Positions 22,990-24,096 of a stretch of DNA of 64,000 bases are shown in pieces. The translations under genes were made by a program, and so were the position numbers. A model generated the notes under the pieces. It saw nothing but the letters and a program-made list of their open reading frames with translations. It was not told the origin of the DNA and searched no databases. This DNA is from Escherichia coli. GTDB lineage: Bacteria; Pseudomonadota; Gammaproteobacteria; Enterobacterales; Enterobacteriaceae. Each line of letters opens with the position of its first letter. Position 1 is the stretch's first letter. The stretch lies in NCBI RefSeq assembly GCF_029227855.1, contig NZ_CP074356.1, one strand, 5' to 3'.

Positions 22990-23352
22990 ATTTTTCCCTA
23001 AATAGTCAGTATGTTGAAACTTTTTATTGTGAGATTTGTTGCAAAAACCATCTGACCATAACGCCAGCTGCCGGGGAAAGGAAGGATTATCTGCGGTTTT
23101 TGTGATGAAAAGCAGGATGATTATATTTAACCCAGTAAATACGTTCCTGTCTTTTTTTGTATAAAAAATGTTTATTACTCGATGTAAGGATACATTAATT
23201 TTACGTTTATTATGATGAATCCTCGGCAAATGAGCGAAATTTGATAGAACATTTATCTGCTGTACGATTTAATGAACTTAATGATACAGCATTACAAAAA
23301 CAATCGAAGTTTATAAAGATGATTTCTGATTGACCAGCCCCCCTACCCTACA

Positions 23353-23772
23353 ATGGTGACTAATTTTATTACTCGCGATGGAGATGATGATATGAATATA
23401 TCATATGTGAATAGCAACAAAACGACATCTTTACCTGTTGAGCTAGATGCACTAAATAATAAAGATATCTCTTATGCCAAAGATTTCTTTTTATACATAG
23501 AAACACAGTTAAAAATTGCAAAAGATTTTTGTAGACCTGGAGAAGAAGTATCAAGTTCTATTGCAAGTAAAGTTTTTCACGCATTTATTGATTTAGTTAA
23601 CAAAATCAGGGGTAAGAAAGACTTTATGTATATTTGCACGCTTTGCTGTTTTGCCGAGGAGGTTAAAGGTGATTATTCTCATTACAGGACCTTTTTATTT
23701 GATATTGGTAATCAATATAAGGTTAAACTTACACAAAGCGGAAAAAAGAGTCTCTTTAACATTAGAATTTAA
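23353..23772 (+). CDS. Hypothetical protein, AT-rich orphan ORF
   Basis: 139-aa ORF in a strongly AT-rich stretch between aphA and tyrB; no recognisable domain; alternative start ATG 23392 with GGAG upstream. Confidence 0.4.
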   Translation: MVTNFITRDGDDDMNISYVNSNKTTSLPVELDALNNKDISYAKDFFLYIETQLKIAKDFCRPGEEVSSSIASKVFHAFIDLVNKIRGKKDFMYICTLCCFAEEVKGDYSHYRTFLFDIGNQYKVKLTQSGKKSLFNIRI

Positions 23773-24096
23773 CGATACTATAATTGAATCTCAGAAAGTC
23801 ACAGGCAATAAGGCAAAGCATATTCTTGAGGATATAGAAATATTCTATCGTAACAAACCCGATACTTATTATTAAATTTAATAATGGTTAGATGTGCAGA
23901 AATTATTACTCCACCCAAAAAAACAGGATAAGGAATTCCAGATAATTGGGATAAGCTTAACAATAAAAGAACTAACAACGTTTATTATCTCTCACGTAGA
24001 ACGATGGCATCAAAAAAATCATCTATAAAGAAAGAGTGAAAGCGACGACAGTTTAATTTCACTGCAGGCTGGGTAGCTCCAGCCTGCTTTCCTGCA

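Follow-up and report, generated by a model that had tools for sequence, protein, structure and literature searches.

The AT-rich islet between aphA and tyrB of Escherichia coli probably carries a lineage-restricted orphan gene, yjbS, that is frameshifted in the strain analysed

The ETT2 type III secretion cluster of E. coli is made up of lineage-specific genes under mutational attrition. The KguS/KguR island serves alpha-ketoglutarate utilisation and has been shown to act in colonisation of the urinary tract (Cai et al. 2013, PMC3694859). Promoter islands are bound by RNA polymerase and H-NS and give little productive transcription (PMC3661553). The K-12 tyrB/yjbS region is one of 78 such islands, predicted to be foreign and H-NS-bound (Panyukov and Ozoline 2013, PMC3661553), the H-NS binding there coming from the ChIP sets marked 'K' in Table 1 of that study, those of Kahramanoglou et al. 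and Oshima et al. (PMC3661553). The K-12 locus also falls within one of the 20 most GC-divergent 1-kb segments (PMC2575891). In the literature found, yjbS appears only within gene lists. These include genes of low Tn5 insertion frequency in K-12, where it is listed with the ETT2 remnants ygeF, ygeG and ygeN (PMC5821084), and genes in which IS1 insertions were found (PMC4999529).

We analysed this region in a 64,000-nucleotide stretch of E. coli DNA (hereafter, the window). The interval is flanked by aphA (22276-22989, - strand) and tyrB (24097-25290, - strand), both confirmed by the RefSeq annotation of a strain whose sequence here is 100% identical. Strain CFSAN061769 has 100% identity and the same neighbours, and K-12 has 99.6% identity over 1107 nt with the neighbours unchanged. 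In all 16 other alleles examined, yjbS likewise lies between aphA and tyrB and is read in the opposite direction from these two genes. The AT-rich island proposed in a preliminary description of this DNA was confirmed: G+C content calculated in 200-nt steps was 0.285-0.365 across 23000-24099 versus 0.45-0.60 in aphA, tyrB and beyond, and averaged 32.1% in the variable segment 23129-24096 and 30.2% in the ORF region versus 50.5% in the whole window. The 139-aa ORF (23353-23772, +, ATG) and the 74-aa ORF (23651-23875, +, TTG) reported there are both present exactly as described. Taken as a whole, the feature is probably the yjbS islet of E. coli, a ~0.97-kb AT-rich, lineage-restricted filler of a variable aphA-tyrB slot that holds one orphan protein gene, a pseudogene here (Table 1).

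Table 1 Features of the aphA-tyrB interval and the yjbS islet (coordinates in the window).
Feature	Coordinates	Strand	Remarks
aphA upstream (promoter) region	22990..23128	-	Common to all three locus versions; outside the variable islet
Variable AT-rich islet, 968 bp, 32% G+C	23129..24096		Begins where the shared aphA promoter ends; last base adjoins the tyrB stop codon
Conserved non-coding block upstream of ORF	23230..23333	+	Putative promoter and leader (role inferred)
Shine-Dalgarno GGAG (23380-23383), 8-nt spacer, ATG (23392-23394)	23380..23394	+	Likely true start
Truncated frame, 126 codons: ancestral residues 1-118, then out-of-frame SLFNIRI and stop	23392..23772	+	139-aa ORF is the same frame extended upstream
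18-bp in-frame repeat unit AAAGATATCTCTTATGCC, KDISYA	23461..23478	+	One copy in the window; 2 or 4 in other lineages
G deleted in K-12	23531..23531	+	GATTTTTGTAGACC in the window vs GATTTTT-TAGACC in K-12
Frameshift lesion, net -2 nt	23742..23754	+	A6 (23742-23747) and T missing in GAGT-CTC
Out-of-frame 3' remnant, +1 frame: VSLTLEFNDTIIESQKVTGNKAKHILEDIEIFYRNKPDTYY and stop	23750..23875	+	Sole homologous part of the 74-aa ORF (23651-23875)
3' non-coding part of islet, fastest-evolving	23876..24063		1-2-nt indels; no conserved ORF on either strand
GC-rich hairpin GCAGGCTGG..CCAGCCTGC just past tyrB stop	24064..24087		tyrB terminator supplied by the islet

The slot was found in three states among 5426 complete E. 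coli genomes. The islet occurred in ~4331 (~80%), a 14-kb KguS/KguR island replaced it in ~1050 (~19%) and a 336-bp spacer occupied the slot in 19; altogether, ~1070/5426 genomes were without the whole islet. Alignment showed that similarity to both a 336-bp-spacer strain (L005) and a B2/KguS strain (L007) ends at ~23128, and no repeats were found at the islet borders. The shared stretch between aphA and this border is itself well conserved, with only 7/139 variable columns across 11 alleles. The suggestion that the AT-rich DNA is part of an extended aphA promoter was not upheld, as aphA exists without the rest of the islet, only the first ~139 bp upstream (22990-23128) being common to the three locus versions.

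The distribution agrees with the earlier proposal of horizontal acquisition: ~80% of E. coli genomes carry the segment, other DNA takes its place in the rest, and no relatives were found outside Escherichia. When 1.84 billion representative proteins were searched exhaustively with a profile, the only matches were fragments of this E. coli gene, and a scan of the GTDB species representatives gave a sole match, labelled 'Flavobacterium paronense', which we rejected as a relative since it is K-12-type E. coli contamination with homopolymer errors. Searches of phages returned no copy of the islet and searches of plasmids no genuine copy, the plasmid matches being 0.4-4.9-Mb records (mislabelled chromosomes) or contaminants, among them a 17-kb Klebsiella 'plasmid' record that carries K-12-type sequence. 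As these 'plasmid' matches are chromosome-size records or the K-12-type Klebsiella record, they give no evidence of a mobile source, and neither a donor nor any sign of mobility (integrase, tRNA, direct repeats, phage or plasmid copy) was found for the islet. Consistent with the initial remark that the 139-aa ORF has no recognisable motifs, Pfam, NCBIfam, PADLOC and PHROGs gave no match below E 0.01, and no Rfam family matched within 22800-24300.

The identity of the gene became apparent from other lineages. Intact single ORFs of 160, 161, 167 or 179 aa were found at the aphA-tyrB position in 11/16 other E. coli lineages, an estimated share that rests on a sample of 17 lineages, and their C-terminus is the +1-frame translation of the window. 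Protein clusters of 161-167 aa contain up to 2144 member sequences. Length differences of 18 or 54 bp between the 161-, 167- and 179-aa alleles lie at the 23461-23478 repeat, and the ancestral gene codes for a soluble protein of ~161 aa (160-179, set by the number of 18-bp repeat copies). The start is likely ATG 23392, giving 126 codons here, rather than 23353. It is favoured because GGAG is conserved 8 nt upstream and because the substitutions in the 13-codon extension (23353 to 23392) are all non-synonymous (4/4). Both GGAG/AGGAG and the ATG are invariant across 11 alleles, and PGAP and the K-12 yjbS annotation use the equivalent start. The preliminary statement that K-12 annotates a shorter yjbS in this interval was correct; the K-12 product has 67 aa and begins at the ATG equivalent to 23392.

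These observations bear on whether the islet codes for protein at all. An essentially non-coding element, acting as an H-NS nucleation site or promoter island or in long-range regulation of aphA/tyrB, with an ORF incidental to AT-richness, would accord with the cataloguing of the region as a promoter island binding RNA polymerase and H-NS (PMC3661553), with the failure to find a protein homologue or fold and with the location of the most conserved part in non-coding DNA (23230-23333). However, a frame of 160-179 codons is kept in most lineages at 30% G+C, and when the islet was shuffled 2000 times with dinucleotides preserved, the longest ORF in six frames had a mean length of 58 +/- 16 aa, at least 139 aa being obtained in only 3/2000 and 126 aa being reached in 7/2000. 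An ORF of this length is beyond expectation from base composition. Pooled pN/pS of the intact alleles was below 1 (0.43 vs 0.066 for aphA and 0.059 for tyrB), with an excess of variable sites at third codon positions (15, 22 and 33 at positions 1, 2 and 3). Indels within intact ORFs were all multiples of three (3, 18, 36 or 54 nt) versus 1, 2 or 16 nt outside them, and the Shine-Dalgarno sequence and ATG were conserved. A long-range role is further opposed by aphA itself, which in islet-less strains keeps only the 139 bp of shared upstream DNA. We consider a non-coding islet unlikely. The allele comparison argues instead that the intact frame is a genuine protein gene under weak purifying selection, weak because a pN/pS of 0.43 is high, and part of this signal could be residual. 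The preliminary description had named lack of conservation in related genomes as evidence against its proposal; the ORF is conserved there and mostly longer.

The reading frame in the window is disrupted near its 3' end. At the lesion site, an alignment of 19 alleles showed that intact versions have A7 or AAAAAAT followed by GAG[T/C]TCTC. The A7-to-A6 deletion is common to K-12 and the window, and the window has a further 1-bp deletion 4 nt downstream. Owing to A6 and this extra deletion, translation from 23392 is out of frame after residue 118 and stops at 23772; the annotation of strain CFSAN061769 includes an identical 381-nt CDS, WP_001472715.1. By this comparison, yjbS in the window is a frameshifted pseudogene, and the 67-aa YjbS of K-12 is a still shorter fragment of the same ~161-aa gene; the window ORF runs past the end of the latter because the G at 23531 is kept. 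The K-12-type deletion junction was found in ~1524/5426 genomes, the window-type junction (exact 48 nt) in 142/5426 complete genomes and the O157-type allele (10-bp deletion, O157:H7) in 309/5426. Four lesions lie in one 20-nt stretch and differ by lineage, namely A6 (K-12 and window), the T deletion (window), the 10-bp deletion (O157) and a G deletion (NT1F34/A28). Programmed frameshifting at the in-phase A_AAA_AAG (GGA AAA AAG) was rejected as a rescue, as a -1 slip would read GAG TCT CTT TAA and stop after three codons; the true C-terminus is reachable only by a +1 shift at the lesion.

The lesion lies in and beside a homopolymer run, where sequencing classically goes wrong, and the long-read contaminant contig shows homopolymer errors at this very locus, so that a gene really intact in this strain might have been misread in sequencing or assembly. 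Two distinct deletions, however, separate the window from intact alleles, and one of these falls beyond the homopolymer; the exact 48-nt junction of the window recurs in 142 independently assembled complete genomes. As the window-type allele is present in that many genomes, the frameshift is not a sequencing error in our judgement, and the chance that it is one is negligible.

The same 142 genomes could be taken to favour a functional shorter variant (126 aa if started at 23392, 139 aa if at 23353) in place of a pseudogene. The start codon, GGAG and conserved upstream block are all intact, and residues 1-118 include three predicted helices. With 73% of the protein retained and a good ribosome-binding site ahead of it, the 126-aa product may have some activity. 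Yet the part lost is both the best conserved and the best predicted. The most conserved stretch of the gene (23798-23837, pi 0.005) lies within the out-of-frame remnant, and in the predicted structure, where the three helices fall within residues 1-118, pLDDT is 80-89 at residues 100-150. The four independent lesions are clustered and occur in different lineages, and decay has been serial, with A6 in common with K-12 and then a different extra 1-bp deletion on each branch, a pattern that fits neutral decay after inactivation. We judge a functional truncated product very unlikely. The best-conserved C-terminal 41 codons are stranded in the +1 frame, seen as the tail of the 74-aa ORF. The coding part is probably inactive in this strain, and the islet contributes in practice a spacer and the tyrB terminator hairpin.

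The two ORFs first described as distinct features are the 5' part (139 aa) and the out-of-frame 3' part (74 aa) of one gene. Both pass a mechanical ORF call, and PGAP gives two CDSs here in some genomes, as would be expected of two separate, overlapping genes. Against this, both CDSs lie in one uninterrupted frame wherever PGAP splits them. Matches to the 74-aa ORF are confined to its final 41 codons, the C-terminus of the gene, its opening 33 codons being an out-of-phase reading of the main frame. The 67-aa K-12 protein is used as reference, which makes the split an artefact of annotation, and two genes are scarcely conceivable. PGAP also labels intact alleles in other strains 'frameshifted' or 'incomplete', sometimes splitting them into two CDSs; they are mislabelled because proteins are named after the K-12 fragment. 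Reference bias here inverts which yjbS allele counts as the pseudogene.

The block upstream of the ORF is the most constrained part of the islet, with 3/104 variable columns in 23230-23333 versus 36/160 in the 3' non-coding part (Fisher, p 4e-6) and 77/484 in the ORF (p 1e-4). It contains a sigma-70-like pair, TTGATA (23241-23246) and TACGAT (23263-23268) separated by 16 nt, as well as a 12-nt imperfect inverted repeat, TGCTGTACGATT / AATGATACAGCA, at 23258-23269 / 23280-23291, and the + strand RNA fold of the block had z = -2.5. The inverted repeat was not accepted as a LexA box because its spacing is 22 nt, not 8. A 30-aa ORF (23241-23333, +) was also discarded as a gene, both substitutions in it being non-synonymous and one allele having a 16-nt insertion. 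Downstream of the coding remnant, pi reached up to 0.16 in 40-nt windows across 23876-24035, the stretch from which the 36/160 variable columns were counted. A 44-aa ORF (23894-24028, +) and a 59-aa ORF (23799-23978, -) were ruled out as genes because of 1- or 2-nt indels among alleles. The hairpin at 24064-24087 forms on both strands (z -2.8 and -3.0) and hardly varies from allele to allele; it could serve the + strand gene as a terminator as well. At the tyrB end of the spacer and KguS/KguR versions of the locus, different hairpins are present.

The preliminary description had also raised binding by H-NS, which is reported for the K-12 locus (PMC3661553) and is carried over from K-12 to this strain. 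Judging from the published K-12 data and its base composition, the islet would be coated and transcriptionally silenced by H-NS, would bind RNA polymerase unproductively as a promoter island, and would resist Tn5 insertion and attract IS1. An IS1 insertion in yjbS was also seen among the genome matches of the region (H10). Crude scans gave two near-matches to TCGATAAATT, a high-affinity H-NS motif, in the islet, with a window-wide count not above chance, and a simple consensus scan, cruder than the published method, gave 6 promoter-like sites in the islet vs 5.4 +/- 2.5 in shuffles.

On the basis of transposon data, yjbS has been carried as 'essential' (PMC5821084), and a recoding study of 2026 cites it under that label (PMC13287592). 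We regard the TraDIS call as doubtful. The whole islet is missing from ~1070/5426 genomes and K-12 has only a fragment of the gene, which argues that the low insertion count reflects the state of the DNA, not essentiality. Protection of AT-rich DNA from Tn5 by H-NS is the likely cause of the few insertions.

It is improbable, on present evidence, that the intact 160-179-aa 'long YjbS' is a functional E. coli-specific protein controlled via the invariant ~100 bp upstream of it, in which the 12-nt inverted repeat lies. Were it so, K-12, O157:H7 and this strain would be natural knock-outs, and the 'essential' 67-aa K-12 gene would become a dispensable fragment of a strain-variable accessory function. 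Structure predictions hint faintly that a secreted effector or an immunity-type factor may be candidate roles; the hints are weak fold resemblances and a disordered Ser/Asn/Thr-rich N-terminus in the intact protein. No reliable fold match was obtained for the intact protein, and neither its sequence nor its fold was significantly similar to any known type III secretion effector or CdiI-type immunity protein. The yjbS locus itself is already known, and the gene is an ordinary decaying accessory gene. The finding has a small biological weight of its own, that of a textbook small AT-rich H-NS-type orphan gene decaying by frameshifts.

Compared with the described systems, yjbS resembles ETT2 in being AT-rich, absent in the B2-type genomes examined, intact in some lineages and variously broken in others, including K-12 and O157. 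It differs in having no sequence or significant fold link to secretion-system components and in lying far from ETT2. The K-12 tyrB/yjbS region has the AT-richness, the link to predicted foreign DNA and the H-NS binding of promoter islands. However, the published 318-bp island corresponds, by coordinate conversion, to approximately 23596-23913 of the window and so falls within the gene, in its decayed 3' half, rather than in an intergenic promoter. In uropathogenic E. coli, the KguS/KguR island (c5032-c5041) fills precisely the slot of the islet, which begins ~139 bp upstream of aphA and ends at the tyrB stop; island and islet are mutually exclusive. The two have no common sequence, the former comprising 14 kb and ten functional metabolic and regulatory genes, and the latter 1 kb and one orphan gene. 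The aphA-tyrB junction is a three-state replacement hotspot with sharp borders, which provides a context for the KguS/KguR island of uropathogens.

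Between aphA and tyrB the window very probably carries a frameshifted allele of yjbS, an orphan gene specific to E. coli, within a silenced AT-rich islet. The gene order is uvrA, yjbR, yjbQ, aphA, the AT-rich gap, tyrB and alr, and G+C content (200-nt windows) is 0.29–0.37 across the gap and about 0.5 on either side. This agrees with the AT-rich island of the preliminary description, and both ORFs that it listed, of 139 and 74 aa, were found. The longer one exceeds the expectation from composition, as only 3 of 2000 dinucleotide-preserving shuffles of the islet contained an ORF of at least 139 aa (mean longest ORF, 58 aa). 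The shorter yjbS that the description mentioned for K-12 is also there, annotated as a 67-aa gene. The whole interval (1107 bp) is 100% identical to that of CFSAN061769 and 99.6% identical to that of K-12.

Features of the aphA–tyrB interval in window coordinates
Feature	Coordinates	Strand	Remark
aphA	22276-22989	minus	
Segment common to all three locus versions	22990-23128		139 bp adjoining the aphA start codon
Low-G+C stretch	23000-24099		
Islet	23129-24096		Different in each of the three locus versions, up to the base adjoining the tyrB stop
Conserved 5' non-coding block	23230-23333		3/104 columns variable
Imperfect inverted repeat	23258-23269 / 23280-23291		12 nt
139-aa ORF	23353-23772		
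GGAG	23380-23383		8 nt upstream of the ATG
ATG taken as start	23392		
ORF	23392-23875		77/484 columns variable
18-bp repeat unit	23461-23478		
Promoter island of K-12	~23596-23913		318 bp, by coordinate conversion
74-aa ORF	23651-23875		
Slippery heptamer	23740-23748		GGA AAA AAG
Frameshift lesion	23742-23754		
Near-invariant stretch	23798-23837		40 nt
Stop of the intact ORF (equivalent)	23873-23875		
3' non-coding part	23876-24035		36/160 columns variable
GC-rich hairpin after tyrB	24064-24087		
tyrB	24097-25290	minus	

The alignment covered K-12, O157:H7 and 14 further lineages, chosen to span the range of identities among the BLAST hits. Eleven of the 16 have one ORF that runs open from the same ATG to the same stop, encoding 160, 161, 167 or 179 aa owing to a 3-bp deletion and to the copy number of an 18-bp in-frame tandem repeat (KDISYA/KDFSYA; 1, 2 or 4 copies by lineage; comparison loci L003, L011, L016 and L023). 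The main frame of the window matches the intact proteins over residues 1–118 and diverges thereafter, and the +1 frame matches them from VSLTLEFND... through the C-terminus. The 74-aa ORF lies in this +1 frame, so its meaningful part is limited to the last 41 codons; the two overlapping ORFs of the preliminary description are parts of one gene in two frames. K-12 yjbS is annotated from the ATG equivalent to the one tabulated here, as is a 126-aa hypothetical protein in the identical interval of CFSAN061769. This shared start, the GGAG invariant across all alleles, and the four substitutions between alleles in the 13 additional codons of the 139-aa version (4/4 non-synonymous) led us to place the start at this ATG.

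At the lesion, intact alleles read GCGG-AAAAAAA-GAG-[T/C]TC or GCGG-AAAAAAT-GAG-TTC. K-12 has A6 at this site, and the window has A6 plus one missing T (GAGTCTC). K-12 also lacks the G equivalent to window position 23531, and this loss creates the early stop responsible for its 67-aa product. Other lesions at the A-run hot spot are a 10-bp deletion in O157:H7 and the loss of one G in NT1F34 and A28. Junction-specific queries against 5426 complete genomes found the window-type allele (A6 plus T deletion) in 142, showing that it is real and moderately common, the K-12-type allele (G deletion) in ~1524 and the O157-type allele (10-bp deletion) in 309. A shared first lesion followed by differing second lesions is the pattern expected after inactivation. 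In NT1F34 (NZ_CP075487.1, 688-1400) aphA is also annotated as frameshifted, alongside the broken yjbS allele.

The A7-to-A6 deletion produced an in-phase dnaX-type slippery heptamer, A_AAA_AAG. Rescue of the window allele by a −1 slip was rejected, since the slipped frame reads GAG TCT CTT TAA and stops after three codons. Judging from sequence only, ribosomes slipping by −1 in a K-12-like ancestor that had GAGTTCTC and the G at 23531 would yield ...KK-EFSLTLEFND..., the exact intact protein.

Pooled pN/pS across ten intact alleles was 0.43, compared with 0.066 for aphA and 0.059 for tyrB in the same strains, and variable sites numbered 15, 22 and 33 at codon positions 1, 2 and 3. Indels within the intact ORFs were all multiples of three; the non-coding DNA of the islet on either side had indels of 1, 2 or 16 nt. 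This points to the intact form being a translated, weakly constrained gene. Its product (18.7 kDa, pI 7.6) had no hydrophobic segment and no matches in Pfam, NCBIfam, PADLOC or PHROGs. The homology search proposed in the preliminary description was run word-indexed against 5.8 billion proteins and as a full HMMER pass across 1.84 billion representatives; both yielded Escherichia sequences and pieces of this gene and nothing else. A phage search found no copy, and 'plasmid' matches were rejected as a mobile source, being mislabelled chromosomes. The sole match in a one-genome-per-species scan was a contaminated 9.5-kb contig of 'Flavobacterium paronense' CECT 8460 (NZ_JAUFQN010000013.1), in which K-12-type aphA-yjbS-tyrB DNA with long-read homopolymer errors contaminates a public Flavobacterium assembly. 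A 17-kb Klebsiella oxytoca 'plasmid' (NZ_CP069917.1) also bears yjbS of the K-12 type; it looks like cloned DNA or contamination by E. coli. Another match (P0065; 106 aa, 898-bp ENA contig) joins the first 39 residues of the gene, including the upstream extension, to a stretch assigned to PF06109 (HlyE) as a precomputed domain, which we take to resemble the haemolysin E C-terminus; the fusion probably reflects a chimeric assembly or a construct.

The AlphaFold model (pLDDT 66, pTM 0.62) predicts three helices, a sheet of four to five strands and a helix at the C-terminus, with the N-terminus disordered. The 18-bp repeat forms a small coding VNTR in the region predicted to be disordered. Effector and immunity proteins recurred among the weak fold matches, which we treat as no more than a lead. 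We think it improbable that the intact protein is an accessory factor that is regulated and varies between lineages, perhaps with a secreted or protective role.

Variation was uneven along the islet. The 5' non-coding block was far less variable than the ORF downstream of it (p 1e-4) and than the 3' non-coding part (p 4e-6). It contains an invariant −35/−10-like pair (TTGATA-16-TACGAT) and an inverted repeat, and its plus strand folds somewhat better than shuffles (z −2.5). The simplest reading is a putative promoter and leader of the gene, possibly with an operator. Within the stranded 3' part, 40 nt (VTGNKAKHILEDIE) are near-invariant between alleles, synonymous positions included (pi 0.005 versus ~0.05–0.09 around), which hints at additional nucleotide-level constraint.

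Published K-12 data include the tyrB/yjbS region among 78 'promoter islands', where RNA polymerase and H-NS bind but hardly any productive transcription results, and mark it as DNA of predicted foreign origin (PMC3661553); by coordinate conversion, this island falls in the part of the gene that has decayed, its 3' half. The 1-kb segment of K-12 with tyrB and b4621 (yjbS) is in the genome's top 20 for GC divergence (PMC2575891). Tn5 insertions are scarce in yjbS, as in several other AT-rich horizontally acquired loci of the same table (PMC5821084). Clones from two macrophage-evolved K-12 populations had IS1 inserted at yjbS nt 193 (PMC4999529), and IS1 also lies inside the islet of a natural bovine isolate (NZ_CP074354.1); such recurrence fits the IS1 preference for AT-rich DNA. 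Crude promoter-site and H-NS-motif scans of the islet gave no excess, so the silencing step draws on the literature and composition. In this strain, we infer, the islet would be xenogeneic-type DNA kept silent by H-NS. Its gene is dispensable and repeatedly lost, and the window copy is a pseudogene. The foreign, H-NS-type part of the earlier reading stands; its aphA promoter extension and its two ORFs do not.

In the papers searched we found no description of K-12 YjbS as a piece of a ~161-aa gene that roughly two-thirds of the other sampled lineages keep intact. RefSeq/PGAP labels uninterrupted 160–179-aa ORFs as 'frameshifted', 'incomplete' or split (loci L003, L008, L009, L011–L017 and L019), apparently because proteins are named by reference to the truncated K-12 YjbS of 67 aa, and sometimes adds a second CDS from an internal Met (MYICTLCC...). 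These points correct the annotation and reveal no new type of biology. The locus is already annotated as yjbS, and earlier publications cover its composition, its foreign character, its binding by H-NS and the alternative island at this site.

Islet borders were set by comparing three locus versions, each with its own GC-rich hairpin after tyrB. An 'extended aphA promoter' is not borne out, as the versions share only the 139 bp next to aphA. The yjbS islet occupies the slot in ~4331 of the 5426 complete genomes, an unrelated 336-bp spacer in 19 (e.g. NZ_AP027764.1, 3001-3336) and a 14-kb island in ~1050 (e.g. NZ_CM187552.1, ST1193). The TraDIS-derived 'essential' label for yjbS, repeated in PMC13287592, is hard to reconcile with the islet's absence from ~1070 of these genomes. 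The yjbS islet comes with no tRNA, no mobility genes and no repeats at its borders. An AAA-family ATPase and pnuC lie between tyrB and alr in the 336-bp-spacer strain and in another whose 167-aa allele is intact (L023, 4501-5504); both genes are absent from the window, and tyrB–alr forms a second, neighbouring variable slot.

The 14-kb alternative encodes a sensor kinase, a sigma-54 regulator, a second 2-oxoglutarate dehydrogenase, a sucCD-like succinyl-CoA synthetase, a DASS transporter and an Ldh-family oxidoreductase, and its aphA-proximal DNA is merely 92.5% identical. This is the KguS/KguR island already described in uropathogenic strains, where its discoverers located it between tyrB and aphA (PMC3694859). 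The KguS/KguR island and the yjbS islet have identical borders but no sequence in common.
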